Part shown: piece after piece, positions 36,233 through 62,924 of the stretch
How the letters are laid out: each line of letters begins with the position of its first letter
Numbering within the stretch: the stretch's first letter is position 1
Assembly (NCBI GenBank): GCA_964542785.1
Contig: CAZIUK010000002.1
Location: forward strand, 49,927-113,926
Source of the DNA: an uncultured Planctomycetales bacterium
GTDB lineage: Bacteria; Omnitrophota; Gorgyraeia; Gygaellales; Profunditerraquicolaceae
Direction: 5' to 3'
DNA length: 64,000 nt
The notes under the pieces: model-generated
Database searches by the model: none
What the model saw: only the letters and a program-made list of their open reading frames with translations
What the model was told of the DNA's origin: nothing
Made by a program: the position numbers and the translations under genes

Positions 36233-36370
36233 TACAAGCTTAATTTTAGGTAACTTTAAATTTAACCGGCTACTTAAGATAAAGTTTACAACATAGACAA
36301 GTAAAAACAAGGGTAATTCGGGAATACTTTGAAAAGGGTTTCTTTAGCATTCTTCTTGCTGAATATACGA

Positions 36371-44696: not shown

Positions 44697-44708
44697 CTCT
44701 CTTCCCCT

Positions 44709-45641
44709 TTAAAGACTACCGCTAATTTTAAAGTGTATATGCCTTGTAATAAAGTTATTGGGGGTAATATCAAATGCCGGGTAATAACCCTTAGCTCCTT
44801 TTGGCGCAAGCCTTAAACCCCTATACTCTAACATCTCTTTATCCGGCCTAACCTCTATTTTTATATCACTACCACTCTTTACTCCTGATGGCGGCGGGCA
44901 GATAACATAAAAAGGGATATTAAAATGCTTTGCGGCTACGGCAATCTGGTATGTTCCGATTTTATTAGCAATATCCCCGTTTAAAGCTAAGTGGTCAGCT
45001 CCGACAATAACCTTATCAATCAACCCCTTTTGCATAACGTAAGCTACCATATTATCTGTAATCAAGGTAACGTCAAACCCGCCCCTCTTTAATTCCCAGG
45101 CAGTAAGGCGCGACCCCTGCAAATAAGGCCTGGTCTCTGTAGCAAAAAATCTTAAGGTTTTCCCCTGCTTAAGGGCGAGCTTTGCGATTAAAGGCATAAG
45201 CCCACTTATATTACAATGGGTTAAAATTGCCTCTTTATTCTTTAATAACTTTACTACATCTTCTGCCTGTTTTATACGGCTATATTTTAGCCCTTGAAGA
45301 AACTTGAATATATTTTCTTCTAAAGATTCACTGCGCTTCTGCCAGCCTAAAACCATATCGGTTAAATATTTGAAAGAAAGGGTAGGCCTCGTATTATTAA
45401 TAGCTGCGGCAACCTTAAAAAGGTCTCTTGTACCTTTCTTTTTAAGCAATTGAAGGAATATATACATTACCAAAAGAACCTGCCCTACTGCGCGCGTCTT
45501 CATATTCTTAATCGCCTTGCAAGCCTCTTTGTAATTACGCGCTTTTATATAGGCAAGCCTCTGCGGCAGTTTAGTCTCATCAAGAATATAAATAGTACTA
45601 CCCTTTAATTGAACCGGCCAGAATAAAGGAGAAAACTTCAT
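44709..45641 (-). CDS. mtnA: S-methyl-5-thioribose-1-phosphate (5-deoxyribose-1-P) isomerase, eIF-2B alpha/beta/delta family
   Basis: FATETRPYLQGSRLTAWEL and VIVGADHLALNGDIANKIGTYQIAVAAKHFNIPFYV are MtnA signatures. Confidence 0.8.
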   Translation of the reverse strand: MKFSPLFWPVQLKGSTIYILDETKLPQRLAYIKARNYKEACKAIKNMKTRAVGQVLLVMYIFLQLLKKKGTRDLFKVAAAINNTRPTLSFKYLTDMVLGWQKRSESLEENIFKFLQGLKYSRIKQAEDVVKLLKNKEAILTHCNISGLMPLIAKLALKQGKTLRFFATETRPYLQGSRLTAWELKRGGFDVTLITDNMVAYVMQKGLIDKVIVGADHLALNGDIANKIGTYQIAVAAKHFNIPFYVICPPPSGVKSGSDIKIEVRPDKEMLEYRGLRLAPKGAKGYYPAFDITPNNFITRHIHFKISGSL

Positions 45642-45648
45642 AGTATCT

Positions 45649-46422
45649 CTATTTTTCCTCTAATTTTTTAACTGCAGTTAAAGCAATAGTAAGCAAATTA
45701 GCCTCTGCCATATAATAAGCAGGATTCATAAAGCCCATCTCACCGGTAATAACATTATCGCTTACCGCTAAAATTGAACCGGCCTTAATATTATAAGTTT
45801 GCGCAATCGTAAGCAAAGCCGAAGAGACCATATCTACTGCCCTTGCCCCCTCTTTGCGCTTAGCCTCAACTATATGGCGTGTTTCGCGTAATAACGCATC
45901 CGTTGTCCAAGCTACCCCGCGGTGGATATTTAAATCCATCTCTTTAGCTACATTATATAAAGTATCGGCTATTCTTTTGTCGGATAAAGTCTTAAAACTC
46001 TCTTCAACATAATAAGGAGTGACTCCGTCCCCACGGATAACTTCATCTACAACAAAAAGATCCCCTACCTTAATATCTTCATCCAAAGACCCGGCAGTAC
46101 CAATACGGATAATATTCTCTATCCGGGCATTGCACATAACCTCCGTAGTAATAGAGGTATCCGTTGAGAATCTTCCTCCGTTTATCGCCGTAACCCTAAC
46201 CCCTTGATAATTACCGGTAAACATAGAGTATTCCATAAAGGTAAAATTCTTTATCGGATTTTCTAACTTTTTTAATAGCGTCTCAAGTCTGTCTTTTGGT
46301 CCGGGGACTATCGCATATTTGCCTACATCCTGCGGCCTTAACTGCACCATATCCGTCAAATCCTTGCCTGTTAAATGCACCTCTTTTTGCATACGCATAA
46401 GCCTAATCTCCTTATTATACAA
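45649..46422 (-). CDS. PNP/UDP-family nucleoside phosphorylase (DeoD-like; candidate MTA/5'-deoxyadenosine phosphorylase)
   Basis: IVPGPKDR, IIRIGTAGSL and AVDMVSSAL...LAVSDNVITGE align with hexameric DeoD-type phosphorylases. It is adjacent to mtnA. Confidence 0.65.
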   Translation of the reverse strand: MYNKEIRLMRMQKEVHLTGKDLTDMVQLRPQDVGKYAIVPGPKDRLETLLKKLENPIKNFTFMEYSMFTGNYQGVRVTAINGGRFSTDTSITTEVMCNARIENIIRIGTAGSLDEDIKVGDLFVVDEVIRGDGVTPYYVEESFKTLSDKRIADTLYNVAKEMDLNIHRGVAWTTDALLRETRHIVEAKRKEGARAVDMVSSALLTIAQTYNIKAGSILAVSDNVITGEMGFMNPAYYMAEANLLTIALTAVKKLEEK

Positions 46423-47332
46423 ATACCCCTTTCAATACCTCTTCTAAATTATCCCCTAAGATACACTGCTTATCTTCTTTAGGTATATCTAAACTATTAA
46501 TTGCCTGAATACTTAAGGCAAAATCTTTTTTTGCTGGATAATCACTCCCCCATAAAATACGCCTAGCCCCAAAGAGCGATAATGCCGATTGGAAATTAGC
46601 CCGCGTAGTATCTCCTGAAGTATCCACATAGATATTCTTTAAAAAATCTGTTGGGACTCCTTTTAAGTCCTTAACAAAATTAATTGAACGCAGCATCTGA
46701 TAAGTCGTATCAAACCTCCTGGCTAAAAAAGGTAACACTCCGCCAAAATAAGCAAAGATAAACTTTACTTTATATTCGCGTAGAATATCCGCCATTAAAA
46801 GTTTGCCGATACAAATTGTAGTATCAAATACATACTCAACTACCGGCGTAAGCAAAGGGTCCTCCACACGCTCGCTTCCTATGGGTTTTACAATCTGCGA
46901 ATGGACAAAGATAGGAATACCCTTCTTTTGCACTAACTTATAAATACAAAGGAATTGCTCATCATCAAGATAAACCCCGTTATAACTGGTAGCTAAAGAT
47001 ACGGCCTTAAACCCGAGCTCTTCGGTTGCGCGCTTAACTTCAGAGAGCATATCCTCTTTACAGCCAACCGGTAAAATTGCCGCACCAATAAACCTATCCG
47101 AGTATCTTTTAATTATCCTACCTACATTATCATTGAATATACGCGCAACCTCTGATAAACTTTTAAGTTTTAGGTGAGCATCGGATGTAGGATAAGATAA
47201 TACCGCTCTATCAATACCCGCCTCATCCATCATTTTAAGATGAGACTCGATATCCCCCCACCCCTTATGGTAAAAGTGGGCGTTGGTAATTATCTCTTCC
47301 GGTAGCCAATGGCTATGCGCATCAAATAACAT
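46415..47332 (-). CDS. amidohydrolase-2 (ACMSD-like TIM-barrel metal hydrolase)
   Basis: MLFDAHSHW (HxH metal site at the N-terminus), an internal His and ILWGSDYP (C-terminal Asp) follow the PF04909-type pattern. Confidence 0.6.
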   Translation of the reverse strand: MLFDAHSHWLPEEIITNAHFYHKGWGDIESHLKMMDEAGIDRAVLSYPTSDAHLKLKSLSEVARIFNDNVGRIIKRYSDRFIGAAILPVGCKEDMLSEVKRATEELGFKAVSLATSYNGVYLDDEQFLCIYKLVQKKGIPIFVHSQIVKPIGSERVEDPLLTPVVEYVFDTTICIGKLLMADILREYKVKFIFAYFGGVLPFLARRFDTTYQMLRSINFVKDLKGVPTDFLKNIYVDTSGDTTRANFQSALSLFGARRILWGSDYPAKKDFALSIQAINSLDIPKEDKQCILGDNLEEVLKGVFV

Positions 47333-47775: not shown

Positions 47776-48552
47776 TCACTCACCCGGATGCTCCTGTTTA
47801 AATGGTATAACCGGCGCAGTCCAGGGGGTCTGCTGATTTATTATGGATATCTCCAATGGGCAAACATTTGCCGGAACAGTTAAAGCAAACTTAAGCGCAT
47901 CTTCTATTGCCTTAGTACTCATCAACCTAGAGGTATCTACGGTTATTTCTTTTAATTTCCCGGTTAAATCAGTATCTGTTACCCCGGGCAAAAGCGAAGT
48001 TACCTTAATACCGTAATCGCGCATCTCCCAAAATAAGCCTTTAAGAAAAGCGCGCAAGCCTACCTTTAAAGAGCTATAAACAATAAAGTTTCTCGGTAAG
48101 GGGTCACAGAGCGTTGACCCTGAAACCATATTTATAATCGCTCCTGACTTGTGCTTCAACATATCATTAATCACTAAACGTATTAAACGCACATAACCTA
48201 AATAATTAGTATAGGCCAAGCGCTCGAAATCTTCTATTGGCTGCTTTGAAAATGGGTATTGACTAGAGACCCCAGCATTATTAATCAAGATATCAATTCT
48301 ACCGAATTTATCTTTAGTTTTATTAACAAGGTTTTCTAAATCCTTAAGGCTTGTTACATCACAAGGTACGGCTAAGGCCTCAATCTTGTGTTTTAAAGAA
48401 ATCTCGTCTGCAGCCTCTTTAAGGGGCCCCTCTTGGCGGGCGGCTATAGCAATGTTTATGCCTAAACTTGCGCAGGTCTCAGCAAGGGCCTTACCTATCC
48501 CCCGACTTGCCCCAGTAATAATAGCTGTCTTTCCTTTTAAATTAACTTCCAT
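47776..48552 (-). CDS. short-chain dehydrogenase/reductase (candidate ketoreductase)
   Basis: TAIITGASRGIGKALAE (TGxxxGxG), NNAG and YSSLKVGLRAF (YxxxK) are present. Confidence 0.8.
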   Translation of the reverse strand: MEVNLKGKTAIITGASRGIGKALAETCASLGINIAIAARQEGPLKEAADEISLKHKIEALAVPCDVTSLKDLENLVNKTKDKFGRIDILINNAGVSSQYPFSKQPIEDFERLAYTNYLGYVRLIRLVINDMLKHKSGAIINMVSGSTLCDPLPRNFIVYSSLKVGLRAFLKGLFWEMRDYGIKVTSLLPGVTDTDLTGKLKEITVDTSRLMSTKAIEDALKFALTVPANVCPLEISIINQQTPWTAPVIPFKQEHPGE

Positions 48553-48564
48553 GTATCCCCCTTT

Positions 48565-49689
48565 TTATAATATTTTAGGTTTTTTGAATTTATCTAAGAA
48601 TAATAAAGATAAAAGCCCTAAACCAAAAAGAATAAACCCTAAGCTAAAACTGCGCGACATAACCAGCCCTCCAAACACCATGCCTATGCCGCCTGAGATA
48701 AAACGGATTCCACTATTTAAGCTTGCTGCTTCATTTAAAAATTCATCCGGTAAATCGGTAAGCATAGTAGCTAACCCTGCGTGGTTAAAGGTCCACCCCA
48801 ACCCCCAAACGCCCATGGTTAAGATAAGCAGGGCTAAAGGGACCTTAAATATTAATAGAATGATACTGATTATCATCAGTAATAATCCTAAATCAACGGT
48901 CTTACTTCGACCTATAGAGTCTGCAAGCGCACCCCCCCACAACTCACCGAATATACCGCTTAAAGAGGTCAAGGTTATCAACATGCTAATAGTAAATTGA
49001 TTAAGCCCAAACTCAGTAGAAAAATATACTCCCAACCACTGCTGTACGGCATGATAGATAAGGCTAATTAAGAAGATGTAGGTTAGTATCCTTAAAACTA
49101 CCCTATCCTTAAAAGCCTTAAAATAATTAAATTTCAATCCTGTTATATCATCTTTAAAACTAGGAAGCTTATAATACATAACTCCCCAGAGGACAAAACC
49201 AAAGAACGCCGGGATAATAAATATCCAACGCCAATAAATTACCCCACTTAAAAAAAGCCCCAAAAGGGAGGCGATAAAAGTAGCGCTAAAAAAAATCCCG
49301 ATATACTTCCCCTTCTTTTCTCTCTCCTGATGCTTACCGATTAGTATAAGCCCAAGGGGTATTACTGAAGCGCCGAACAACCCCATAAAAAACCTCCCTA
49401 AAAAAAGAGAGTATATATTCCAAGATAGAGCTACTAATAAATTAGCAAAAGAAAAAAAGAAGATGCAGGTTAATTCTATCCTACGCGCATCAAACCTACG
49501 CACCAGGGGGCCGTAAAAAAATGCCGCTACTCCGTAGGTAAGCATATAAACCCAGATAATCCTACCGACTAAAAACTGAGAAAGAGCAAACTCGCCCGCT
49601 ATAGAAGGTATGAGCGCTGCGGAGGCTGCGACATTAAAGGAGAGGAGCGCTCCTTCAAGACAGAAGATAAAAAAGGTTGATTTCTTCAA
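48565..49689 (-). CDS. MFS transporter
   Basis: It has 12 predicted TM helices. A GRxxDRxGRR-like loop (RRFDARRIE) follows TM2, and the size is about 370 aa. Confidence 0.7.
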   Translation of the reverse strand: MKKSTFFIFCLEGALLSFNVAASAALIPSIAGEFALSQFLVGRIIWVYMLTYGVAAFFYGPLVRRFDARRIELTCIFFFSFANLLVALSWNIYSLFLGRFFMGLFGASVIPLGLILIGKHQEREKKGKYIGIFFSATFIASLLGLFLSGVIYWRWIFIIPAFFGFVLWGVMYYKLPSFKDDITGLKFNYFKAFKDRVVLRILTYIFLISLIYHAVQQWLGVYFSTEFGLNQFTISMLITLTSLSGIFGELWGGALADSIGRSKTVDLGLLLMIISIILLIFKVPLALLILTMGVWGLGWTFNHAGLATMLTDLPDEFLNEAASLNSGIRFISGGIGMVFGGLVMSRSFSLGFILFGLGLLSLLFLDKFKKPKIL

Positions 49690-50126
49690 GAATTAGCTTC
49701 CTTTTCAATAACTCTTTTAAAAATCTGCAAATTCTCCTTGGAATGCTTATTTATAAACCCCTCTACCTCTTCATCGCTAAACTTTGCTTTGCTATCCATC
49801 TCAAAATGCTGTATCCAGGTAAGCTCTACCCCTTCGGGCCTTAAAGTATAAAGCCAGATAATCTTCATATACTTAAAAGGGAACTTAGGCTCCAGTCTCT
49901 CGGCATAAGCTAAGTGATTATCTTTAAGCAAAAGCCTCCAAGAGACCCAGGTCTTATCCTCATCGTCAGTTAAACGGAAGGTAATCTTATCCCCTTCCTT
50001 GCTTATTATCTCTGCTTTTTTATATTCCGTGCCAAACAACTCTGTCCAACGGAGAATATCATTGGATATATCAAAAACTTTTTCATAAGGCGCATTTATG
50101 ATAATAGAATTGCAAGTATGTCCCAT
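49686..50126 (-). CDS. SRPBCC (Bet v1-like) protein, polyketide cyclase/aromatase-like
   Basis: At 146 aa with the pattern INAPYEKVFDISNDILRWTELF...W..W, it is the size and type of the TcmN/ZhuI-family ARO/CYC enzymes. The call is tentative. Confidence 0.45.
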   Translation of the reverse strand: MGHTCNSIIINAPYEKVFDISNDILRWTELFGTEYKKAEIISKEGDKITFRLTDDEDKTWVSWRLLLKDNHLAYAERLEPKFPFKYMKIIWLYTLRPEGVELTWIQHFEMDSKAKFSDEEVEGFINKHSKENLQIFKRVIEKEANS

Positions 50127-50962: not shown

Positions 50963-51196
50963 TTAGGATTGTTTAGAGAGTATAACCTTCTCAATATCAT
51001 CAATAGTGGAAAACTTAGTAATCTCTTTTGGAGATAGTTTGATACCAAAGGCCTTCTCCAAGGAAATTATTGACTCTACCATCTCAGTTGAATCAACTCC
51101 AACTGAGTCTTGCAAAGATAAGCCATCTTTGAGCTCTTCGGGTTTTACCTTTAAGAGGTTAATCAAAACTTCTCTAATTTTAGTTTTTGTATCCAT
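50963..51196 (-). CDS. acyl carrier protein
   Basis: The 77-aa protein has SVGVDSTEMVE (phosphopantetheine-attachment DS motif, here DST in place of the canonical DSL) and an acidic helix-II. Confidence 0.7.
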   Translation of the reverse strand: MDTKTKIREVLINLLKVKPEELKDGLSLQDSVGVDSTEMVESIISLEKAFGIKLSPKEITKFSTIDDIEKVILSKQS

Positions 51197-51231: not shown

Positions 51232-52698
51232 TTATATCTGTATTTCTCCCTTAGTAGCCGCAGCCTCCCACTTATTAATCCCATCCATAACATCCTTAAA
51301 ACAAAGCTTTGCTAAAGGGTCAAAATTACTCTCCATAATGCGGTTTATGCGCCCGGGTTTAGAGAAGAACTCACGCATACACCAAGCACCTAGGCGCCCT
51401 AGGTCTTCTATAGTTAAGTGGTCTGTAGGAATAACCGGATGCAAGAAGTCCCAAGTAGAAAAGTCAACCTTTCTAGGGTCAACCCAACCTTTCTTTAAGG
51501 CGATCCTCCACATCGGAGAATTAGGAGCCGGAGTAACGTAACCAACCCACATTATATCCGGGTCAACGCTATCGGTAAATTCAAAACGCTGTTTTATAAT
51601 CTCTTCAGTATCATAATCAAAACCCATCATGATATCGGCGACAATAGCAATATCATTTTTACGCAAAATATCTATGGTCTTTTGAATCTGCTCTAAGGTT
51701 ATCCCTTTTGCAATCTTTTTTAACTCTGACTGAGTTGTTACCTCAATCCCAAAAACTCCCATAAACAAACCGTTCTCTTTCATAATCGGGACTATTGATT
51801 CGCAATTAACCCAATCAATCGCTCTACCCAAAGAGACCCATTTAATCGGATTGCCTGATGCTTTTTTTAATTCGCAGAACTTTTTAACCCGCTCAGGGTC
51901 GACATTAAAATTATCATCCTGTATAACTACGACTTTTACCCCGTATTTCTTATGCAACAACTCTAATTCCTCCATCACTCTCTCTGGAGATTTGGCCCGC
52001 CACTTAAGGAAATCCGACGGTGAACGCGGATCAAATTGATCCCACTCATAACAAAACGTGCACGCCGAAGGACAGCCCCGGGAAGTCACCATATCCACAA
52101 AAGGCTTCCAATAAGTATGCCCGACATATTTATCCATAGGAAATAAATCATAGGCGGGTAAGGGCAATTTGTCTAAATCCTCCATCAAAGGCTTATGCGG
52201 GCCCATAACAATATTGCCATCAACGCGCGAGGTAACCCCGGCTACATCTTTTAAAGGTTTATTCTTATCAATCGCCTCAATTAAATCCCCAAATGACTCT
52301 TCCTCTGCCATAACTACAAAGTCAACCTCGGGGTTATCTTCTAAAGTAGGCACAGGCATCGCTGAATACCATAAACCTCCTAATATTATCTTTGTTTTCG
52401 GTAAAACCTTTTTAATCCCTACAGCCGCATCTTTAAAGTGGCGTAAAACGCCATATCCACCATAACCATGCAACTGCTCCCCCATAACAACAATATCCGG
52501 GTTTTTTTGCTTTACAATCTCAATAAGCTGCTCCATAGGAATCTGCTCAGCCTTGCCGTCTAAGACCTCAACATCCGAATACCCGCGCGTCTCTCTTATA
52601 TATGCTGCCCAATGCGCATAAAGTTGATTTGGCGACCTATGAATACCGTGCGTTGCCCACGCGCCTACCTTGGGCATAACAAATAGTATCTTCATCAC
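51232..52698 (-). CDS. B12-binding (class B) radical SAM enzyme
   Basis: An N-terminal Rossmann-like cobalamin-binding domain is followed by TSRGCPSACTFC (CxxxCxxC). The length is 488 aa. Confidence 0.8.
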   Translation of the reverse strand: MMKILFVMPKVGAWATHGIHRSPNQLYAHWAAYIRETRGYSDVEVLDGKAEQIPMEQLIEIVKQKNPDIVVMGEQLHGYGGYGVLRHFKDAAVGIKKVLPKTKIILGGLWYSAMPVPTLEDNPEVDFVVMAEEESFGDLIEAIDKNKPLKDVAGVTSRVDGNIVMGPHKPLMEDLDKLPLPAYDLFPMDKYVGHTYWKPFVDMVTSRGCPSACTFCYEWDQFDPRSPSDFLKWRAKSPERVMEELELLHKKYGVKVVVIQDDNFNVDPERVKKFCELKKASGNPIKWVSLGRAIDWVNCESIVPIMKENGLFMGVFGIEVTTQSELKKIAKGITLEQIQKTIDILRKNDIAIVADIMMGFDYDTEEIIKQRFEFTDSVDPDIMWVGYVTPAPNSPMWRIALKKGWVDPRKVDFSTWDFLHPVIPTDHLTIEDLGRLGAWCMREFFSKPGRINRIMESNFDPLAKLCFKDVMDGINKWEAAATKGEIQI

Positions 52699-52743: not shown

Positions 52744-53976
52744 CTAATTAAACTTTTCTACTACTAATACTGCGTTAATTCCGCCTCTGCCGCGCGAGAT
52801 TACTAAAGCCCTATTAATCTTATATTCTTTAGCCTCTCTACTAATATAATTAAGTCCATTTAAAGCAGGTGAATCTAAATTAACTGTTGGCGGAACTAAA
52901 CCATTCTCCATCGCTAAGGTAGTAGCGATTAAATCAACTACGCCGGAGGCGCCTAACAAATTACCGAACATTGATTTAGGACAACTAACCGGAATATCTT
53001 TGGCCCTCTCTCCAAAAACATCCTTTATTGCCTCCACCTCAGAATTATCCCATAAATCAACTGCCAAGCCATCTAAGCTAATATAATCTATGTCTGAAGG
53101 GACTACTTTAGCATCTAAGAGTGCCTCCTTTATCGCCCGGGCAAGCTCTTTCCCGTCGCTTGCGCAATTTATCCGGTCAACTCCGTCACAAGTAGTCGCA
53201 TACCCTGAAATCAAAGCGAATATATTGGCTTTGCGGGATTTTGCCCTCTTTATACTCTCCATAACCACAACCCCTGAGCCTTCACCTATAACGCAACCAC
53301 TACGGCTCTTATTAAAAGGCCTGTAGGCTTGCTGGGGCTTTGAATTATCTTTGGAGAGCGCGCCATAAGTATTACAACATAAAAGCGCATAAGGAGTAAC
53401 CGGCGCTTCCATCCCCCCGGCAAGGATAAAATTCAATTTATTCTTTAATAATACTTTTTTAGCATAACCTAAGGCCATCAAAGAGCTAGCGCGATCGGCA
53501 ACGACTGTCTTTGAGAACCCCTTAATCCCATAGTAAATTGACACCTGTCCTTGCGGAGCCGCTGGAAACCACGCAGACGCCATATAAGGAGAGACCCCCT
53601 CTCTTCCTTCAATATACATATCCCTAAGCTCAGTCTCGGCGTAAAGCCACCCTCCAATAGCATTGCCTAAAAATATGCCTACTAAATTCGGATCTTCGCT
53701 TTTAATATCAATACCGGAATCTTGCAAGCTCATCTCTGCAGCAACTAAGGCCATGTGTGAAAAGACATCGATTTTCTTTAAGAGCCGCTCTGAGATATGA
53801 CTATATTTTTCTAAATCGTCAATCTGCCCGGCAATACGCGAAGGGTATTTAGAGGCGTCAAATCGAGTAATCTCTTTTATAAAAGACCTACCGCTTTTTA
53901 TATTCGCCCAAAACTGCCTCTTACCTATCCCAGAAGGAGTTACAACCCCTAAACCTGTTATTGCAATCTTATCCAC
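52744..53976 (-). CDS. ketosynthase-like chain-length-factor (KS-beta/CLF-type) protein lacking the Cys-His-His triad
   Basis: The fold is full-length KAS I/II, but the active-site position reads VVADRASS (Arg where FabF has ATACTSG Cys). The first His is absent (LDGLAVD) and the second is replaced (KSMFGNLLG, His to Asn). It has a GTG start with an AAGGAGA Shine-Dalgarno and overlaps the KS gene by 8 nt. Confidence 0.7.
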   Translation of the reverse strand: MDKIAITGLGVVTPSGIGKRQFWANIKSGRSFIKEITRFDASKYPSRIAGQIDDLEKYSHISERLLKKIDVFSHMALVAAEMSLQDSGIDIKSEDPNLVGIFLGNAIGGWLYAETELRDMYIEGREGVSPYMASAWFPAAPQGQVSIYYGIKGFSKTVVADRASSLMALGYAKKVLLKNKLNFILAGGMEAPVTPYALLCCNTYGALSKDNSKPQQAYRPFNKSRSGCVIGEGSGVVVMESIKRAKSRKANIFALISGYATTCDGVDRINCASDGKELARAIKEALLDAKVVPSDIDYISLDGLAVDLWDNSEVEAIKDVFGERAKDIPVSCPKSMFGNLLGASGVVDLIATTLAMENGLVPPTVNLDSPALNGLNYISREAKEYKINRALVISRGRGGINAVLVVEKFN

Positions 53977-55231
53977 TATATCTCCTTAATATCAATGAAG
54001 AGTGTATCCCGGAAAAACCACTACTAGTTTTTAAAATAGTATTTACTTTTTTTTCTATCGCTTGATTCGGTATATAATACAAATCACACTGCGGGTCCTT
54101 CTCCTCCTGATTGATTGTAGGAGGCAAAAGGTTTTTTTCAAAAATCATTGAGGCAATAGTCATCTCAATTGCGTTTGCCGCTGCCAAAGGATGCCCAATC
54201 ATAGACTTAAAAGAACTAATGGGTAAGCTATAAGCATACTCTCCGAAAATCTCCTTATAAGCGCTTGTCTCAAATATATCATTCATCCGGGTTGATGAGC
54301 CATGCGCGTTTATATAATCAATCTCTTTTGACTTAATCCCTGCGTCTTTAAGGGCTAAAGATATACAAGTCTCCATCGCCTGCCCATCGGAAGGAAGGTC
54401 GGTCATATGAAAGGCATTGCAGCTTGTACCAAATCCTAAAACCTCGCAATATATAGGCGCGTTACGCTTTAAGGCATGGCCTAATTCTTCTAATATCAAA
54501 ATACCTGCTCCTTCTGAGAGAACAAATCCGTCACGCTTATTATCAAACGGACGAGATGCCTTTTGCGGATCATCATTATGCACGGATAAAACATTTACTA
54601 CGTCAAAAGCACCAAAGGTTATCGGTGTAATCGGCGCCTCCGCTGCGCCACAAATCATAATATCACACTCTCCATCTTGAATAGACTCTAAACCAAACCC
54701 CAAAGAGTCTGTCCCAGCAGTACATCCTGTTGAAAGGGTGCTACAACTTCCTCTTAACTTATATTTAGAGGATAACTCTATAGAAGGAGTATTAAACATC
54801 GCAGCGTCATAAAGATCAGGACGTACCTTTGAAGGATCTATGGGATTCTTCCCATCATCTGTAACAAGCGCAAACTCCTCCTCCATATACTTTGTCCCGC
54901 AGATAGCATTAGCCAAACAAACCCCAATACGCCTAGGGTCTTCTTTATTAAAATCCAAACCGCTATCCTTTACTGCCATATCTGCAGCAACTACCCCGAA
55001 TTGCACATACCTATCCATGCGCATAGCCTCTTTATGAGTTAAACCCAATTTAAAAGGGTCAAAATCACGTACCTCTGCGGCAATCTTGGTATTAAATATA
55101 GAGACGTCAAACCCATCAACGCGCTCTACCCCAGACTTACCTGATACAAACCCCTCCCAAGCAGATTTCTTCCCTATGCCGTTAGGAGATATAACCCCTA
55201 TGCCTGTAATAACTACTCTGCGTTTATTCAT
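53969..55231 (-). CDS. beta-ketoacyl-ACP synthase (active KS-alpha/FabF-like)
   Basis: STGCTAGTDS (active Cys), NAHGSST and KSMIGHPLAAA (both His) are present. The start is moved to the ATG at 55231 (MNKRRVVITGIGVIS); the track start is TTG and overlaps the upstream gene. Confidence 0.8.
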   Translation of the reverse strand: MNKRRVVITGIGVISPNGIGKKSAWEGFVSGKSGVERVDGFDVSIFNTKIAAEVRDFDPFKLGLTHKEAMRMDRYVQFGVVAADMAVKDSGLDFNKEDPRRIGVCLANAICGTKYMEEEFALVTDDGKNPIDPSKVRPDLYDAAMFNTPSIELSSKYKLRGSCSTLSTGCTAGTDSLGFGLESIQDGECDIMICGAAEAPITPITFGAFDVVNVLSVHNDDPQKASRPFDNKRDGFVLSEGAGILILEELGHALKRNAPIYCEVLGFGTSCNAFHMTDLPSDGQAMETCISLALKDAGIKSKEIDYINAHGSSTRMNDIFETSAYKEIFGEYAYSLPISSFKSMIGHPLAAANAIEMTIASMIFEKNLLPPTINQEEKDPQCDLYYIPNQAIEKKVNTILKTSSGFSGIHSSLILRRYSG

Positions 55232-55235
55232 AAGA

Positions 55236-55835
55236 TTATCTTTTCTCCTCGTCAATCCTCGTTACCTTAAAGACTATATTCCCTCCATCAGGACAAGTGA
55301 CTGTATCTATTGAATTAGGGTCTTGCATGAAGAAAAATTTTGCCCCGAAGTTTAATGCAAAGAGCGCCGGAAAAGCGCAATGAAAAGCAGCCCCGCAAAA
55401 ATTTGGGATAGTCTTTAACCCTTGCGTCTCCCACCTATCCCCTACTTTATACCCATAAGAACATTTGCCCTTAGCCTTAACTACTTCAATAATCATCTTT
55501 TTAGGGTTTGGGCCCTTATGCCTTAAGTCCTTAGCGACAAACTCTACATTCCCCTGCTTGTCAAGTATCTCTGCTTGAAACTCCAACTTACCTCCGTCAG
55601 GGCAGGTAACCAAAAGTGACCTCTGGTTTTCTCTAAACCCGAATTTTGCCCCAAAACTTAAAGCATAGATAACCGGGAATAAAGCATGCGCTAAACCTAA
55701 ACAAAAATGCTTTGGAGGATGGGTAAAATCTTCTAAGATAATCTCATCCCCCTTTTTATAGCCATGGTAGCATTCGCCAAATACATTAGTTACGGTTAAC
55801 TTTAATTTAGGAAAGGGCGTCTTAACTTCTCTCAT
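55236..55835 (-). CDS. tandem-duplicated Cys/His-rich domain protein (two TIGR04076-like ~95-aa repeats), probable metal-binding, function unknown
   Basis: Repeat 1 is GECYHGYKKGDEI...HFCLGLAHALFPVIYALSFGAKFGF...VTCPDGGKLEF. Repeat 2 is GKCSYGYKVGDRW...NFCGAAFHCAFPALFALNFGAKFFF...VTCPDGGNIVF. Confidence 0.4.
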   Translation of the reverse strand: MREVKTPFPKLKLTVTNVFGECYHGYKKGDEIILEDFTHPPKHFCLGLAHALFPVIYALSFGAKFGFRENQRSLLVTCPDGGKLEFQAEILDKQGNVEFVAKDLRHKGPNPKKMIIEVVKAKGKCSYGYKVGDRWETQGLKTIPNFCGAAFHCAFPALFALNFGAKFFFMQDPNSIDTVTCPDGGNIVFKVTRIDEEKR

Positions 55836-55836
55836 T

Positions 55837-56844
55837 TTAATTTAAATACTCCTTTACGTTTTCTAAAAACTCGTCCTTATTTAAAAACCTTCTACTCGTC
55901 TCAACCTGATGAACCATACTGACTAATCTACTATTAAGCCCAGCGGATAAATTACTCTCTTTGGCTAAAGAGACAAACTCTCCGTTTATGAAATCTACCT
56001 CTGAAAGCCTATTGCGCTTTATACTCTGCAGGATAGACCCGTATAAAGCCTCTTTACTTAACTTTATCATCATCCCTGAATATATCCTTGCTGCCTCTTC
56101 TAAGGGGATAGAGATAAGTTTAGTTATATTCTCTAAAGGAAACCCCGGAAGAGAAGTAAGCCTGATACCTGATTTTGATATAATATCAAAACCTTCCCGC
56201 AAAATGTTAATACTTACCCTGCTTACCATTATATCAGAAAAAGCCTCCTGCATACTTATCCCCAGTATAGCAGGGATACAATTATTGGCATTTACAAAAA
56301 TCTTTAAGTATTTCATCCCTATTATATCTTCGCTTATAACGACAGGAAAGGCCTTATCTAAAGCTTTACTTAACGCAACTATTTTTTCATCTATACTACT
56401 ATTTGAAAGCTTACCTAAAATCCAACTCCCTTCAAAATTATGCACCACCTCTGCGGGCTTAAGATAAGTAGAACCAAACATAACAATGCTTGGAATAATA
56501 TTCTCTACAGGAAGATATTTAGATACAATCTTTTCCGCCTGAACTCCGTTTTGAGTAGTAATGATAATAGCGTTTTTAAACAACTCTAAATTACTCTCTA
56601 AGGCTCCCTGAATATCCTGCGTCTTAGTCGCTAAGACTACCACCTCTGCAAAAAAATCTACCTTCTCCTCTATAGGAATATCTACCTTAAAATTACCCCT
56701 TACCCCGGATATACTTATCCCTTTTTTGCGTATAGCAGTAATTGAATCACCCCGGCCGATTAATAATACATCTTCCCCTTTTAACTTAAGATACCCTGCG
56801 ACCAAAGCGCCGATTGCACCTGAACCAATGACTGTTATTCTCAT
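55837..56844 (-). CDS. 2-dehydropantoate 2-reductase (ApbA/PanE) family NAD(P)H oxidoreductase
   Basis: ITVIGSGAIG (Rossmann), VVLATKTQD and the C-terminal SILQSIKRNRLSEVDFINGEFV block are the PanE signature. Confidence 0.65.
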   Translation of the reverse strand: MRITVIGSGAIGALVAGYLKLKGEDVLLIGRGDSITAIRKKGISISGVRGNFKVDIPIEEKVDFFAEVVVLATKTQDIQGALESNLELFKNAIIITTQNGVQAEKIVSKYLPVENIIPSIVMFGSTYLKPAEVVHNFEGSWILGKLSNSSIDEKIVALSKALDKAFPVVISEDIIGMKYLKIFVNANNCIPAILGISMQEAFSDIMVSRVSINILREGFDIISKSGIRLTSLPGFPLENITKLISIPLEEAARIYSGMMIKLSKEALYGSILQSIKRNRLSEVDFINGEFVSLAKESNLSAGLNSRLVSMVHQVETSRRFLNKDEFLENVKEYLN

Positions 56845-57305: not shown

Positions 57306-57596
57306 TTAAGCTACCTCTTCTAGAGGCAAGACAAAGGCCTTTATCCCTTCATGACTACTCTTACCCTTTAATTCCTTTATCTTAACAAGCATCTCTTTTA
57401 ATTGGCTATCCTGACAGGCTATATAAAGAATATTATTTAGCCCCGGCCAAATATCCGTTCCAAGATGCGTTCCGCTTGTCTCTCCGCAGCCAAAGACTCC
57501 AGAGGTCTTAGTGTAACCTTTTACCTTTGCTTCATCTAGTATCTCCATTACTTCGTCATCCAAAACTTCATTATATACGACCATCAGCATTTTCAT
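57306..57596 (-). CDS. PII-like (GlnB-fold) small protein coupled to the RND pump
   Basis: It is 96 aa. The predicted beta-alpha-beta-beta-alpha-beta pattern and the GxxG loop (GVFGCGETSG) resemble PII-like proteins. It overlaps the RND stop by 4 nt. Confidence 0.4.
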   Translation of the reverse strand: MKMLMVVYNEVLDDEVMEILDEAKVKGYTKTSGVFGCGETSGTHLGTDIWPGLNNILYIACQDSQLKEMLVKIKELKGKSSHEGIKAFVLPLEEVA

Positions 57597-60500
57597 GATA
57601 CCCCCTCTTTTCTAAACGCCTTTTTACGGTGAAATACCGCATAAAGAGTAGGGACTAGAAGCATAGTAACAAAGGTAGATACCGAAAGCCCGCTTATCAT
57701 AGTAATCCCTAAAGGCTGCCAAGTCTCAGAGCCTGAGCCGCGCGATAAGGCCAAAGGCAGAAGCCCTACTAACGTAGTTATCGTCGTCATAAGCACAGGC
57801 CTTAACCTATCCTTTCCTGCGGAAGTTACTGCCTCATACATAGAAAAACCTCGGGCGCGCAATATATTTATATAACTTATCAAGACAATCGCATTATTCA
57901 CAACTATACCCATAAGCATGACTATGCCTAAAAAGGTATTAATACTTAAATATGTCCGAGTAAGAACAAACCCGAGTATTACCCCTACAAAGGTAAATGG
58001 TATAGAAAACATTACAATAAAAGGGTCAAGCAAAGACTCAAACTGCCCAGCCATAACCATATAGACTAAGACTATGCCTAATATAAGTAGCAGGGTTAAA
58101 TCCTTAAACGCCTTCTGCTGCTCCTCTACCTCCCCGCCAAAACTAACAATAATATCAGGAGGAATTACGATTTTACTTAATTCTTTTTTTAAATCCTCTA
58201 CAATCTTGCCCGGAGAACGCATATAAGTATTACATTCAACGCTTACTACTCTCTCTCTATTTTGACGCTCTATTGTCTCAGGCCCGCTTGTTTCATAAAT
58301 CTTTGCTACGTTACTTAATCTAACTAACTTTCTAAGGTTGTTTTTTACATTATAAGTAGCTGCCTCCACCCGGGCAAAAGGGACATTCTCTTCAGGCAAA
58401 GGAGGTATAATAAAAAGGTTGTCTAAATCTTCTAATTTTGAGCGTGAGGATTCTTCAAGCCTTACATATATATCATAGGTCTTGCCTTTCTCTCTATACT
58501 TTGTAGCAGTTGCTCCCTGGATATAGGCCTTTAATGTCTCTGAAACTGTATGCATATCAAGCCCAAGGCTAGATGCCTTCTCCCTATCCACATCAATCCT
58601 TAATTCCGGACGATTTGCCTCACGGGATACGCTTACATCAACTGCCCCGGGAATCTTCTCTAAAATTAACCTTATTTTTTCAGCTAAGGCATCCGTCTCT
58701 TCAAAAGAGTACCCTACAATATCTAATTGCACCCTTTTCCCCCCGGTACCGGCAATCATCTTACCTAAAGGGCTTCCTGTGGTTATGTCCGTCTTTAGAA
58801 CTCCAGGAATAACCTTAATTTTTTCCCTGACTATCTGGCCAATCTCTTTAGAAGAGCGCTTCCTCTCTTCCTTTGGTATCAACCTAGCGCCCGCAGAGAT
58901 AATATGTGTCCCGGAAGCTCCTCCCATAAGCCTTCCTACTCCGGTCATTGTCCCACTTCTAGAATAATAAAATTTTGCTTCTGGGATATCTACTTCTAAT
59001 ATCTCCTCTATCCTCCGAGCTACCTTATCCGTCTCCTCAACCCTAGTCCCTATGGGTAAATACACCGTAAGCCTAATATCCCCGGAATCTTCCTCAGGGA
59101 CAAACTCACTTCCTACCAAGGGCAAAAGCATCAAACTAAAAATAAACGCTCCGATAAATCCTATAAGAATAAGTTTTTTATGGTTTAAGCAAAAACCTAA
59201 AGTCTTGCCGTATAAGTTCTCCCAGTTAACAAACCATTTTTCAGAGACCTGATATAATTTAGACAAAAAACCGGCTTTTCTTTCTTTAATACGCAAGAAT
59301 TTTGAACAGAGCATAGGAGTAAAAGTAAGGGAGGTAAATAAAGAGGCAATTAAAGTTACTGAGACTACCATCGCCAAAACCCCAAACATAATCCCTATTA
59401 CCCCAGGGATAAAGAGCATCGGTAGGAAGACTACTAATGTAGTTAAAGTAGAGGCACCTATCGCTAGAAAAAGCTCTGAGGTCCCAAATATCGCTGCTTC
59501 AGATGGACGATTACCGCGTTCAATCTTACGATAAACATTATCTACAACTACAATAGCATTATCTACAATCATCCCAGTAGCAATAGCCAAGGATGATAAA
59601 CTTATAACATTAATCGTCCCCTTACTTAAAAATAGGTATATAAATGCGGCTAAAAGAGAAAAGGGAAGTGTCAATGCAATTATCAAGCTTGGGGTAAACG
59701 CCCTTAAGAAAAACCAGACGACCAAAATAACTAATACTATGCCTACCCAAACCGAAGATTTAAGAGAATCAAGCGATTCAATAATATTCTGTGAGGTATC
59801 AAATATAATATTTAATTTTACATCGGCAGGGAGAACTTTTTCTACTTCCTTAAGCTTATCTTTAACGCGCCCGGCTACCTCAACTGTATTGGTCCCGGTT
59901 TGCTTTTGAACCATAAGCATAATCCCGCGTTTTTTATTAATACGAACGTATCCTGTCTCTTCCTTAAAGCTATCTTCAACCCTTGCCACATCTTTTAAAT
60001 AAATTAGCCTATTGTTGCGCTTACCGAGAATTAATAAATTAATCTCTTCAGGCTTGGCAAATTCACCGGGGAGTCTAATAAGATAATCTGTTAACCCGGT
60101 CTTTAAATTCCCCACCGGCTGGGTTATGTTTTCATACTTTAGCTTGTTTTTAATATCAAGTATAGAGAAACCATAACTCTCTAAGCGTTGTCTATCTATC
60201 CAGATATTTATCTGCCGCTCCAACCCTCCTCCTTGAATCTGCACTGTCCCTACACCAGGAATCTGCTTTAATACGTCGCCTATTCTCTTATCTACGATAT
60301 CATAAAGGTCAGGGTAACTCTGGTCGGCAGTTACTCCGATATAAATAATGGGGATATTGGCAGTATTAAACTTAAATATCATCGGGTTATCCATCTCTTC
60401 GGGAATATCCGGTAAAAATCTCTTTGCCCTATCTATCCTATCGCGGATATCATTTGAAGCCTCATCAAGATTTGTCCCCCAAATAAACTTTAATCTTATA

Positions 60501-60769
60501 ATAGATGTCCCTTCAGAAGAAGTGGAGGTTATCTTTTCTAATCCCGGGGTTGTCCCGAGTTGATTCTCTAACTCCTCTGTTACCTTTATCTCTACATCCG
60601 CGGGACTTGCCCCAGGATAGCTAGAAACTACACTTATAGAGGGAGGCTCAATTTCAGGCATCATATCAACGCCCAAACGACTTAAAGAATAAACGGCAAG
60701 AATAACCATCGCTAGAAAAATCATTAAGTTCGTAATCGGCTTTTTAACTCCGAATTGCGGCAAACTCAT
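57593..60769 (-). CDS. RND-family efflux transporter permease (AcrB/CzcA superfamily)
   Basis: It is 1058 aa with 12 TM segments and two large periplasmic loops. The AcrB-type N-terminus (KPITNLMIFLAMVILAVYSL) and conserved TM4 acidic/TM10 regions are present. Confidence 0.85.
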   Translation of the reverse strand: MSLPQFGVKKPITNLMIFLAMVILAVYSLSRLGVDMMPEIEPPSISVVSSYPGASPADVEIKVTEELENQLGTTPGLEKITSTSSEGTSIIRLKFIWGTNLDEASNDIRDRIDRAKRFLPDIPEEMDNPMIFKFNTANIPIIYIGVTADQSYPDLYDIVDKRIGDVLKQIPGVGTVQIQGGGLERQINIWIDRQRLESYGFSILDIKNKLKYENITQPVGNLKTGLTDYLIRLPGEFAKPEEINLLILGKRNNRLIYLKDVARVEDSFKEETGYVRINKKRGIMLMVQKQTGTNTVEVAGRVKDKLKEVEKVLPADVKLNIIFDTSQNIIESLDSLKSSVWVGIVLVILVVWFFLRAFTPSLIIALTLPFSLLAAFIYLFLSKGTINVISLSSLAIATGMIVDNAIVVVDNVYRKIERGNRPSEAAIFGTSELFLAIGASTLTTLVVFLPMLFIPGVIGIMFGVLAMVVSVTLIASLFTSLTFTPMLCSKFLRIKERKAGFLSKLYQVSEKWFVNWENLYGKTLGFCLNHKKLILIGFIGAFIFSLMLLPLVGSEFVPEEDSGDIRLTVYLPIGTRVEETDKVARRIEEILEVDIPEAKFYYSRSGTMTGVGRLMGGASGTHIISAGARLIPKEERKRSSKEIGQIVREKIKVIPGVLKTDITTGSPLGKMIAGTGGKRVQLDIVGYSFEETDALAEKIRLILEKIPGAVDVSVSREANRPELRIDVDREKASSLGLDMHTVSETLKAYIQGATATKYREKGKTYDIYVRLEESSRSKLEDLDNLFIIPPLPEENVPFARVEAATYNVKNNLRKLVRLSNVAKIYETSGPETIERQNRERVVSVECNTYMRSPGKIVEDLKKELSKIVIPPDIIVSFGGEVEEQQKAFKDLTLLLILGIVLVYMVMAGQFESLLDPFIVMFSIPFTFVGVILGFVLTRTYLSINTFLGIVMLMGIVVNNAIVLISYINILRARGFSMYEAVTSAGKDRLRPVLMTTITTLVGLLPLALSRGSGSETWQPLGITMISGLSVSTFVTMLLVPTLYAVFHRKKAFRKEGVS

Positions 60770-61644
60770 AACTCTTCTACCTCAACTTCTACTAAAGCTC
60801 CCTCAAAGAGCTTCTGCTGCCCCATAATAACAACTATATCCCCCTTACTAACTCCGCTGTTTACTTCATAATAAAATCCATCCTTTATCCCTAAAGATAC
60901 CTGCCTAAGCTTGGCTTTATTACCCTCAACTACAAAAAGATAAGAGTTAGAATCCCTACCCATTATCGCCTCTTTAATTACCGCCGGAACAGACTGCCTT
61001 TTATCTAAAATAATACTTGCCCGGGCAAACATTCCTGACCTTAATTTTCTATCAGAGTTATCCGCGGTTATCTCTATGGGAGAAGAACGCGTCGCTAAAT
61101 TTATCACTGGGCTAATTTTAGACACTACCCCTAAAAATTCTTCATCCGGCCAAGCATCCACCCTAAAGCGCGCCTCTTGGCCTAAAAACAATTTAGGCAA
61201 ATATTTCTCCGGTATATCTAAAATAATTTTTACCCTACTGTCATTTACTACAAAGGCTACTGGGGTCTGCGCAGTTACATTCTCCCCTATATCTACAAGA
61301 AACCTCCCCACTACCCCATTTAGGGTACTTTCAACAGGAGCCTTCTTAAAATTAAGGCCTACCTCATCCCGGTCTATATAACATAGGTAATCTCCCTTGT
61401 TAACTATACTCCCATCTTCTTTAAGTTTCTCTATAATTTTACCACTTACCTTTGGATAAATATAAGCTTCATCTTCAGCTTTTATATCTCCTGCATATTC
61501 TAATATATAATTTAAATCTTTAAGCTCCACCTTCATAACCTTTACCGGGATAGTATCCTGCTCCTGGCTATTCTTTACCTTTGTCTGACATCCGGAAACA
61601 ATAAATAACGATAAAAATAATACTAAAGAAATTATACGCGCCAT
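60766..61644 (-). CDS. RND periplasmic adaptor (membrane fusion protein), lipoprotein
   Basis: The lipobox IVSGC is followed by a biotinyl-lipoyl-like hairpin (KVSGKIIEKL...YLCYID) and beta-barrel/MP domains. It overlaps the RND start by 4 nt. Confidence 0.75.
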   Translation of the reverse strand: MARIISLVLFLSLFIVSGCQTKVKNSQEQDTIPVKVMKVELKDLNYILEYAGDIKAEDEAYIYPKVSGKIIEKLKEDGSIVNKGDYLCYIDRDEVGLNFKKAPVESTLNGVVGRFLVDIGENVTAQTPVAFVVNDSRVKIILDIPEKYLPKLFLGQEARFRVDAWPDEEFLGVVSKISPVINLATRSSPIEITADNSDRKLRSGMFARASIILDKRQSVPAVIKEAIMGRDSNSYLFVVEGNKAKLRQVSLGIKDGFYYEVNSGVSKGDIVVIMGQQKLFEGALVEVEVEEL

Positions 61645-62924
61645 TACAATCCTCCTGTTGCCTTATCAAATTTCGCTTTAGCTAATATATAGTCGTAAGA
61701 GGCCTGCTTGTAATTAAACATAGCCACAGCATACTTAACCTCCGCGTCGCTCTTATCAAGCAGGCTTAACTGACCTTTATCATATTTTTCAGTAGATACC
61801 TTTAGGTTATCTGTGTACACCTTAATCTCTGTTTGGTTAGATTTAATCTTGGCTATTGCATCTTTAAGGCCAAGATAAGCGTCTTTAAGCTCTAAGATAA
61901 TATCTTTTATAACTTTATCTTTTAATAGCTGTGTTTTTTTCAATTCAAATACCGCCCCTTCTACCTTAGCCTTTGCCTTCCAGCCGTCAAATACCGGCCA
62001 AGAAACATTAACTCCGATAACATTATGATCATTCCAACCTCGGGTATTAGCTAAAGCCGTAGCTGTATGCGAACGGCTATAGTAATCCCATGAGGCATAA
62101 ATATCAGGCCTACCAGATGCCTTGGCTATCTCGATTGCGCTCTTGTCTGCCTGCAACTGGGCAGCATACTGCTTAATCTCAGGCCTTTCTTCAAGCGCCT
62201 TTAGTAAGCCTAAATCTAAGGCAACCTCGGCTTCTTCATAGCCTATATCCCCCAAAGCCGATATGTCAACATCTTGCTCTAAATATAAAAGATTGATCAA
62301 CGATTCTTTGGCTGAAATTACCTGATTTAAGGAAGATACATATACCTCCTCTAAATTACTCAAAGAAGATTGAGCTTGTAATACCGCTGATTCAGAAATC
62401 TCACCGAATTTTTGCCTCTCAAGTTGATATTGAAAATGCTCCTGCCCGTTTTCTAACAATAGTTTATTAAGATTTACAAATTCTTGTGCAAGGATTAAAG
62501 TATAAAAAGTATCCTTTATTTTTAAAGCGGTCTCTATCTTCTCTTTGTCTAATAAGGCCTTGGCAATTTCAAAATTATAGCCGTTAAATTTTATGGTATT
62601 GAATATTCTCCCGCCCGCATAAAGATACTGCCTTAAACTAACCTGAGTATTGGATTGGCTTAAATCTTTGGAATAATAATTTCTCGTGCGCGCCCAGCCT
62701 CCAGATAAAGTAAAAAGAGGAAAAAGGTCTGTATGGCTTTCAGCAATCTTTACCTTAGCTCTCTTTACATCCTCCTCTTTTAACAGTATGCCCCTATTAT
62801 CCCTCAAGCCCACAAGCATAGCCTCTTCCAAAGTAAAAGAAACGCCTTCTGCTAAAGCAAAAAAATAAGGCCAAATAATAAATAAAAAAGCCACTCCCCC
62901 TAATCTTAAATATCCCCTGAACAT
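61644..62924 (-). CDS. TolC-family outer-membrane efflux channel
   Basis: A signal peptide is followed by two-fold internal repeat architecture with long coiled-coil segments; the length is 426 aa. Confidence 0.7.
   Translation of the reverse strand: MFRGYLRLGGVAFLFIIWPYFFALAEGVSFTLEEAMLVGLRDNRGILLKEEDVKRAKVKIAESHTDLFPLFTLSGGWARTRNYYSKDLSQSNTQVSLRQYLYAGGRIFNTIKFNGYNFEIAKALLDKEKIETALKIKDTFYTLILAQEFVNLNKLLLENGQEHFQYQLERQKFGEISESAVLQAQSSLSNLEEVYVSSLNQVISAKESLINLLYLEQDVDISALGDIGYEEAEVALDLGLLKALEERPEIKQYAAQLQADKSAIEIAKASGRPDIYASWDYYSRSHTATALANTRGWNDHNVIGVNVSWPVFDGWKAKAKVEGAVFELKKTQLLKDKVIKDIILELKDAYLGLKDAIAKIKSNQTEIKVYTDNLKVSTEKYDKGQLSLLDKSDAEVKYAVAMFNYKQASYDYILAKAKFDKATGGL

Follow-up and report, generated by a model that had tools for sequence, protein, structure and literature searches.

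What role can be played by a ketosynthase (KS) that has lost its entire catalytic triad, when its gene is coupled to that of an intact ketosynthase? The question is raised by a 64,000-nucleotide stretch of DNA from an uncultured bacterium of the Omnitrophota (positions 49,927 to 113,926 of contig CAZIUK010000002.1, assembly GCA_964542785.1; hereafter 'the window', to which all coordinates refer), and specifically by an open reading frame (ORF) at 52744-53976. The original prediction, made from the DNA letters alone, was that this ORF and its upstream neighbor have the architecture of a KS-alpha/KS-beta pair, in which KS-beta is also termed the 'chain length factor' (CLF). The follow-up analysis described here makes it highly probable that the ORF is the CLF of a type II, aromatic-type polyketide synthase (PKS) in a Candidatus Omnitrophota genome, and the proposed architecture is upheld by CLF motifs, phylogeny, a nearby acyl carrier protein (ACP) and aromatic-PKS cyclases, and purifying selection, all of which agree. 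The features immediately at issue are as follows.

52744 to 53976, minus strand: chain length factor (KS-beta; highly probable), 410 amino acids (aa), GTG start, TAG stop
53969 to 55255, minus strand: KS-alpha, the active ketosynthase, with an intact triad; as listed it starts at TTG 55255
53969 to 53987, minus strand: KS-CLF junction, with AAGGAGA at 53987-53981, spacer TATA, GTG at 53976-53974 and TAA at 53971-53969

Both KS Pfam domains are present in the CLF ORF (PF00109, 9.4e-43; PF02801, 5.3e-28), as in a full-length KS fold. The protein does not reach the curated cut-off for any of the NCBIfam KS models and, with 366.1 bits against a cut-off of 493.75 on the FabF/KASII model TIGR03150 and its triad gone, falls outside the FabF family. 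The register of its active-site positions was established by two methods, phmmer against three solved FabFs (3o04, 5sxo and 1j3n) and MAFFT with E. coli K-12 FabF (NC_000913). Both alignments pair the nucleophile segment IATACTSGV of FabF with VVADRASSL of the CLF, placing Arg162 (codon CGC, 53491-53493) in the column of Cys163; both pair YVNAHGTST with YISLDGLAV, so that His303 becomes Asp302 (53071-53073); and both pair SMTGHLLGA with SMFGNLLGA, so that His340 becomes Asn339 (52960-52962). The predicted replacement of all three catalytic residues is therefore borne out by two concordant methods, with no sign of mis-registration or of a Cys/His/His triad; the first His, which had been described simply as 'lost', is indeed lost, and is more exactly replaced by Asp. 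With Arg162 aligned to Cys163 by both methods, formation of an acyl-enzyme is impossible, as had been claimed. A sequencing error or frameshift is ruled out because the identical protein is recorded independently by NCBI/Logan (P0001) and JGI (P0002). Further departures from FabF surround these positions: Asp161 directly precedes Arg162, and the gate loop NSFGFGG reads ISRGRGG, with Arg395 and Arg397 replacing both Phe residues (a change absent from the original prediction). The peptide A-W-F-P-A-A-P, a CLF signature, occupies residues 135-141. As a separate observation, the CGC codon of Arg162 is a single transition from the Cys codon TGC.

The upstream partner retains the active site that had been ascribed to it (Cys178, His318, His355 and Lys350, in ORF numbering). 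Among solved proteins the actinorhodin KS is its best match (378.7 bits), followed by 6smo_B (371.9 bits), with all FabFs at 350.5 bits or less; the start used in gene calls of its homologues gives a protein of 420 aa and matches ATG 55231. The junction between the two genes was read directly as TTAAGGAGATATAGTGGATAAG and agrees with its earlier description, in that the Shine-Dalgarno sequence AAGGAGA lies within the 3' end of the KS gene, 4 nt ahead of the GTG. The genes overlap by 8 nt (GTGGATAA), the KS stop codon TAA falling within CLF codons 2-3, and the same overlap is found in the close homologues L091 and L092. The two genes are co-transcribed, and the overlap and Shine-Dalgarno sequence make translational coupling probable.

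The loss of all three catalytic residues could also be taken to mean that the ORF is a decaying, functionless duplicate of the neighboring ketosynthase or of a FabF, a reading to which we give almost no credence. The ORF is intact and of full length, and comparison with a 95%-identical homologue gives a ratio of nonsynonymous to synonymous substitution rates (dN/dS) of 0.051 for the CLF (at a dS of 0.46), equal to that of the KS (0.041) for the purpose of this argument, and 0.019 for the neighboring radical S-adenosylmethionine (SAM) gene, with dS values of about 0.45-0.5. The CLF is under strong purifying selection, about as strong as that on the KS, and from its dN/dS the protein can be taken to be functional. 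More than 120 sequence clusters (at the 90% identity level) are 80-100% identical to it, the named close homologues being without exception 'Candidatus Omnitrophota/Omnitrophica bacterium' (the spread of the family inside this phylum is based on protein-database names only), and a profile search widens the family to 50% identity, bringing in metagenome-assembled genomes (MAGs) of Nitrospirota and 'Deltaproteobacteria'. Signature motifs with no catalytic role are invariant in this family. Asp161 and Asn339 are each present in 195 of 195 members, Arg162 in 188 (six others carry Ser and one Cys), and Asp302 is conserved at 90% or more in a 70-sequence subset. Finally, the CLF is only 31% identical to the adjacent KS, and their duplication must therefore be ancient.

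The placement of the ORF in the CLF lineage draws on shared characters and on phylogeny. The actinorhodin (Act) CLF, 1tqy_B, reads LVAEQAGGL, VVFADGAGV, FAWFYAV and LARGRWG at positions where the window CLF reads VVADRASSL, SLDGLA, SAWFPAA and SRGRGG, and the two have four characters in common: an acidic residue before the nucleophile position, Asp in place of the first His, the A-W-F tripeptide and the R-G-R loop. None of the four was found in the compared FabF or KS-alpha sequences. The Act KS and CLF (1TQY) form an obligate KS-alpha/KS-beta pair; their CLF differs from that of the window in having Gln161 for Arg, Arg for Asn at the second His and AWFYA for AWFPA, and the two are 35% identical. 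The CLF characters (the acidic residue, AWF[PY][AT]A, and (S/A)RG for the SFG gate) are all present in the window CLF when it is set beside 1tqy_B and 25 genomic CLFs. The genome collection was scanned with the pattern Q[AS][TIS]AWF[PY][AT]A, the most conserved peptide of the CLF alignment, picked automatically; the scan returned 588 relatives, Streptomyces CLFs among them, and the 29 intact matches that were checked comprised 25 of CLF type and 4 of KS type. No Omnitrophota genome was among the scan matches, the pattern needing Q where Omnitrophota proteins carry M (MASAWF).

In a neighbor-joining tree of 41 sequences (distance-based, 200 bootstraps), all CLFs, including the Act CLF and the window ORF, fall in one clade (84%), and all KS-alpha partners, including the window KS, in a second (85%). 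Within these two clades the sequences from Omnitrophota, Thermodesulfobacteriota/'Delta', Nitrospirota and one further MAG group together with 70% and 84% support, respectively, and the mirrored sub-topologies are what would be expected of co-evolving subunits.

Several points count against assignment of the ORF as a CLF. Its placement in the tree is distance-based only and its 84% support is moderate; its raw score is slightly nearer to Firmicute FabFs (281 bits) than to the Act CLF (246.7 bits); no CLF chain is among the 50 listed matches of a fold search, which are headed by FabFs at a template modelling (TM) score of about 0.90 and do not separate CLF from FabF; and the nucleophile position is occupied by Arg162 instead of Gln, long regarded as the CLF hallmark. 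To these can be added, as a weak point, that neither a malonyl-CoA:ACP transacylase nor a phosphopantetheinyl transferase is encoded in the cluster; type II PKSs commonly rely on a borrowed FabD.

The original prediction called Arg at the nucleophile position unusual. That description holds in comparison with canonical actinomycete CLFs (E-Q, E-G or E-A) only; overall it does not, D-R being standard in a large branch that includes the CLF of Ktedonobacter racemifer (KrCLF). Among 50%-identity representatives and genome loci, CLFs fall into two motif classes, one with E-(Q/G/A) and AWFYAA (the canonical actinomycete CLFs) and one with D-R and AWFP(A/T)A, and Gln is not universal at the nucleophile position, where many CLFs carry Gly, Ala or Arg. 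The D-R class is hosted by Clostridium beijerinckii, C. puniceum, Ktedonobacter, Archangium, Vitiosangium, several cyanobacteria, Pseudonocardiales, Phytohabitans, some Streptomyces, Thermodesulfobacteriota and Omnitrophota; the Nitrospirota locus L013 has D-I instead of D-R, with AWFPAAP unchanged. Arg162 is a lineage trait typical of an old, mostly non-actinomycete CLF branch and not an anomaly, and the Arg is already present in the experimentally handled KrCLF.

Previous descriptions of this branch are consistent with its age. The K. racemifer preprint prints the CLF as ...ATAWFPAAVQGN...FLSDRASGAL...KSAFGNLFGA..., reports that KS and CLF sediment as a heterodimer, and assigns the PKS to an 'ancient resistomycin clade'. 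Similarly, published work places the clostridial ClrB, together with RemB, AntE and DenB, in an 'ancestral' part of the CLF tree, and the legend of one supplement gives Asp at the equivalent position of AntE, which could be the Asp of the D-R pair aligned one column over. No paper commenting on the CLF Arg or on the D-R motif was found in the literature searched.

A malonyl-decarboxylase role has been proposed for the Gln of canonical CLFs, and a corresponding reading of the present ORF is that it is a CLF in which Arg162 is catalytic, positioning or decarboxylating malonyl-ACP for priming (as a 'chain initiation factor') or binding a carboxylate starter. The near-constancy of Arg162 (188 of 195) and the invariance of Asp161 (195 of 195) would suit such a role, as would two precedents: the D-R CLFs of Ktedonobacter sp. 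SOSP1-85, Pseudonocardiales and Streptomyces sulphureus retain both His residues, which makes a decarboxylase-like site conceivable there, and an anammox heterodimer considered below decarboxylates malonyl-ACP only when both subunits are present. In the window CLF and its closest relatives, however, neither His remains (Asp302, Asn339) and Arg replaces each gate Phe, and at position 162 Ser or Cys is accepted in seven relatives. A decarboxylase role at this site is unlikely because both His are missing, and catalysis by Arg162 is on the whole very improbable.

The remaining evidence that the pair belongs to an aromatic PKS lies in the genes around it, which are listed here from the head of the cluster.

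55837 to 56844, minus strand: ApbA/PanE-type NAD(P)H oxidoreductase, conserved at the cluster head
55236 to 55835, minus strand: tandem TIGR04076-family protein, directly upstream of the KS, kept in the anaerobe clade
51232 to 52698, minus strand: B12-binding radical SAM enzyme, between CLF and ACP; best NCBIfam matches BchE and HpnJ
50963 to 51196, minus strand: acyl carrier protein, 77 aa, with a GVDS phosphopantetheine-site motif; homologues annotated PF00550
50159 to 50959, minus strand: PF04199 'putative cyclase' (Pfam match)
49686 to 50126, minus strand: SRPBCC aromatase/cyclase, matching TcmN ARO/CYC (5.4e-26) and other solved polyketide cyclases
48565 to 49689, minus strand: major facilitator superfamily (MFS) transporter, probable exporter (domain match)
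47776 to 48552, minus strand: short-chain dehydrogenase/reductase (SDR) of FabG/ketoreductase type, candidate polyketide ketoreductase
46415 to 47332, minus strand: Amidohydrolase_2 protein; solved relatives LigW, ACMSD and gamma-resorcylate decarboxylase (non-oxidative aromatic-acid decarboxylases)

This gene content points to an aromatic type II PKS. In Omnitrophota the order runs (accA)-PadR-ORF of 86-89 aa-ApbA reductase-tandem TIGR04076-KS-CLF-B12-radical SAM-ACP, continues after the ACP with PF04199 cyclase-SRPBCC-MFS-SDR-ORF of 130-137 aa-Amidohydro_2, and ends with nucleoside phosphorylase-MtnA-like isomerase-class II aldolase-aldehyde dehydrogenase. Conservation of the cluster among Omnitrophota is high, and the greater part of the cluster is found again in MAGs of Thermodesulfobacteriota and Nitrospirota; those of Thermodesulfobacteriota/'Delta' have an almost complete Omnitrophota set, with both the radical SAM gene and the phosphorylase/isomerase block. 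The PF04199 cyclase likewise follows KS-CLF(-ACP) in C. beijerinckii, in the MAG loci L008, L010, L011 and L012 and in the Omnitrophota loci. The radical SAM gene, with 98% aa identity to L091 and the dN/dS of 0.019 mentioned above, is the most conserved of the cluster; its product scores 196 bits as BchE and 160 bits as HpnJ, both far under the cut-offs. No description of the Omnitrophota cluster was found in the literature searched. A 90%-identical Omnitrophota homologue of the cluster carries an extra Cupin_2 gene (L092:7970-8290) between its PF04199 and SRPBCC cyclases.

The combination of a live and a dead ketosynthase with a dedicated ACP and a B12-radical SAM enzyme is also reminiscent of a quite different system, namely Cluster I of Kuenenia, where an active KASII homologue and its dead paralogue form the CLF-like amxFabF2/amxFabFmut heterodimer of anammox bacteria. 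On that model the window pair would be a 'FabF-mut' heterodimer like that of a fatty acid synthase, of the ladderane-cluster kind, which would start or extend an unusual fatty acid destined to be remodelled into a membrane lipid by the B12-radical SAM enzyme. The conservation of the cluster is as high as that of a lipid pathway would be, accA adjoins it in relatives, and antiSMASH-type 'ladderane' biosynthetic gene clusters have been reported in Omnitrophota MAGs. Closer comparison makes the model distinctly improbable. The anammox cluster encodes FabZ and a homologue of desaturases but no cyclases, whereas no FabZ-like dehydratase, enoyl reductase or phytoene-desaturase homologue is found in the window cluster, which has two aromatic-PKS cyclases. 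The radical SAM protein reaches only 63.9 bits on TIGR04072 (rSAM_ladder_B12), the model for lipid-biosynthesis B12-radical SAM enzymes, against a cut-off of 360. The gene order is reversed, the anammox mutant gene lying upstream, and the anammox Cys is replaced by Val or Thr. The ORF scores 208.9 and 181.5 bits against the anammox chains 9s5h_B and 9s5h_C (an entry that we infer to belong to the anammox preprint, bioRxiv 10.64898/2026.05.19.726425), compared with 246.7 bits for the Act CLF, and both genes are placed with KS-alpha/CLF pairs in the neighbor-joining tree.

Among the closest known systems are PKSs of the D-R branch. The KrKS/KrCLF pair of K. racemifer (KraA/B) has been expressed as a soluble heterodimer; KrCLF shares D-R, Asn at the second His and AWFPAA with the window CLF, and differs from it at the first His, which is Ala in KrCLF and Asp in the window. 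The host, K. racemifer, is an aerobic member of the Chloroflexota. A second Ktedonobacter D-R CLF (P0151 cluster, locus L015), from a PKS distinct from KrKS/KrCLF, shares about 39-40% identity with its counterpart in the window, and the two KS proteins share about 50%; at L015 there is no B12-radical SAM, TIGR04076 or ApbA gene within 10 kb.

The closest relative from a cultured organism is the pair of C. beijerinckii and C. puniceum (CLF and KS each 46% identical to those of the window), which, from the species, the architecture and the naming in PMC7693217, is probably ClrA/ClrB of clostrubin biosynthesis. Its CLF reads TVADRASGM at the nucleophile position, and its host is anaerobic. The order in C. 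beijerinckii is KS-CLF-(TIGR04076-ACP fusion)-PF04199 cyclase-SRPBCC, with Amidohydro_2 further downstream, a single TIGR04076 domain thus being fused to the ACP right after the CLF where the window has a tandem protein upstream of the KS. Unlike the window CLF, the clostridial one retains the second His (YGHLYGA), and its locus is without a B12-radical SAM or ApbA gene.

Two other pairs were considered and set aside. ApeO/ApeC of E. coli CFT073, likewise described as a KS and 'chain length factor' pair, had been named in the original prediction as a comparison, which proved unsuitable: ApeC, of 240 aa, has no detectable similarity to the CLF ORF (blastp E = 5.3), and for ApeO a partial alignment gives an identity of only 24%. 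The cispentacin proteins AmcF and AmcG (a KS and a 'cyclization factor') fared no better, the AmcF model NF058662 giving 128.9 bits against a cut-off of 325; AmcG has been described as without known motifs.

How might the inactive subunit act? An AlphaFold2 model of the CLF is of good overall quality (predicted local distance difference test, pLDDT, 89.1; predicted TM score, pTM, 0.91; TM 0.90 to FabF structures), and its low-confidence region is confined to residues ~110-140, the helix-loop-helix that carries AWFPAAP. In KASII the counterpart of this element packs on the other subunit and covers the substrate site, and low confidence in the model is as might be expected of an interface element in the absence of its partner; the equivalent residues are disordered in the FabF-mut homodimer crystal, according to the anammox preprint (bioRxiv 10.64898/2026.05.19.726425). 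Single-chain proteins in which a dead KS follows an active one also occur naturally, with the same N-to-C order as the window genes. The fusions observed (P0122, P0141, P0152, P0153, P0194, P0216, P0234 and P0257) are of ~800-870 aa, with an N-terminal Cys/His/His KS and a C-terminal KS domain whose triad is missing or incomplete; P0141 reads A-D-R-A-S-S at the nucleophile position.

By analogy with characterized KS-CLF pairs, KS-alpha and the CLF would form an obligate heterodimer in which KS-alpha alone makes the C-C bonds and the CLF stabilizes it. The CLF helix-loop-helix at ~110-140 would serve as the far wall of the tunnel for the acyl chain and in this way set the number of malonyl-ACP extensions, while the old CLF pocket would be closed and rigidified by the non-catalytic charged cluster of Asp161, Arg162, Asp302, Arg395 and Arg397. 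From the gene context, a poly-beta-ketone would be built on the 77-aa ACP and folded by the TcmN-type and PF04199 cyclases; the SDR, ApbA reductase, decarboxylase-like amidohydrolase and B12-radical SAM enzyme would then tailor it, and the product would be an aromatic polyketide.

Other parts of the cluster and its surroundings deserve mention in their own right. In the clusters of Omnitrophota, Thermodesulfobacteriota and Nitrospirota a TIGR04076 tandem immediately precedes the KS (55236-55835 in the window; L007:11260-11787), and this protein looks like an undescribed accessory component of this PKS branch. Downstream of the PKS genes, at 42214-46422 on the minus strand, is a block encoding a PNP_UDP_1 nucleoside phosphorylase, an isomerase of the IF-2B family that resembles MtnA, a class II aldolase extended by an SCP2 tail, and an aldehyde dehydrogenase; in Thermodesulfobacteriota MAGs (L008:18447-21242; L011:17455-19200) the PKS is likewise succeeded by phosphorylase and isomerase genes, to which L008 adds the aldolase. 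Phosphorylase, isomerase and aldolase resemble the dihydroxyacetone phosphate (DHAP) shunt for salvage of 5'-deoxyadenosine, a radical SAM by-product. Between PadR and the PKS cluster, at 57306-63355 on the minus strand, is an operon of MarR, an outer-membrane factor, a membrane-fusion protein, a resistance-nodulation-division (RND) pump and a PG0541-family protein; at least its pump end is also present in L091, while accA-PadR abut the cluster directly in L001 and L003. The operon looks like an insertion or a lineage-specific addition, and possibly has a role in product export.

Elsewhere the window is ordinary chromosome, with genes for LeuRS, SecA, a class-I peptide-chain release factor, RlmN, Lnt, UvrC, MurJ and LptE. 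A second overlapping pair on the minus strand at 20957-23729 (410 and 515 aa, overlapping by 8 nt), which resembles KS/CLF by size, is UvrC and MurJ, and the resemblance a coincidence. An ORF of 1507 aa at 31787-36310 (minus strand) has HEAT-type repeats in mid-protein as its only Pfam matches (E <= 1e-5).

A dead ketosynthase beside a live one is the textbook design of a type II PKS, and the ORF, once its branch is recognized, is an ordinary CLF. The D-R / AWFPAAP signature cleanly splits a CLF branch that spans several phyla from the canonical proteins with E-(Q/G/A) / AWFYAA, a division that was not found set out in the literature searched, and tools or readers keyed to the canonical Gln could overlook that branch. 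The CLF finding itself changes little; of greater interest is what the strongly conserved, anaerobe-specific version of the cluster makes. Omnitrophota are uncultured and often ultra-small, and we know of no natural product characterized from the phylum. One speculative answer, which we regard as unlikely at present, is that the cluster of Omnitrophota, Thermodesulfobacteriota and Nitrospirota makes, instead of an accessory antibiotic, an oxygen-independent aromatic polyketide with a core physiological role in strict anaerobes, such as a quinone-like redox carrier or cofactor, in which case the BchE/HpnJ-like radical SAM enzyme would perform chemistry that is left to oxygenases in aerobes. The hints in this direction are that conservation of the PKS genes exceeds that of the housekeeping-type neighbors (identity across loci is 89% for the radical SAM protein, 85% for the KS and 81% for the CLF, versus 59-70% for ApbA, PadR, IF-2B and aldolase), with dN/dS values of 0.02-0.05; that the family is very abundant in metagenomes; and that synteny with accA and with the nucleoside phosphorylase/MtnA-like isomerase/class II aldolase block is maintained across two phyla. 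KS-CLF pairs of the D-R branch belong to the small number for which solubility in E. coli has been reported, and a conserved aromatic-PKS cluster equipped with a B12-radical SAM enzyme and TIGR04076 protein represents a concrete target for heterologous expression.

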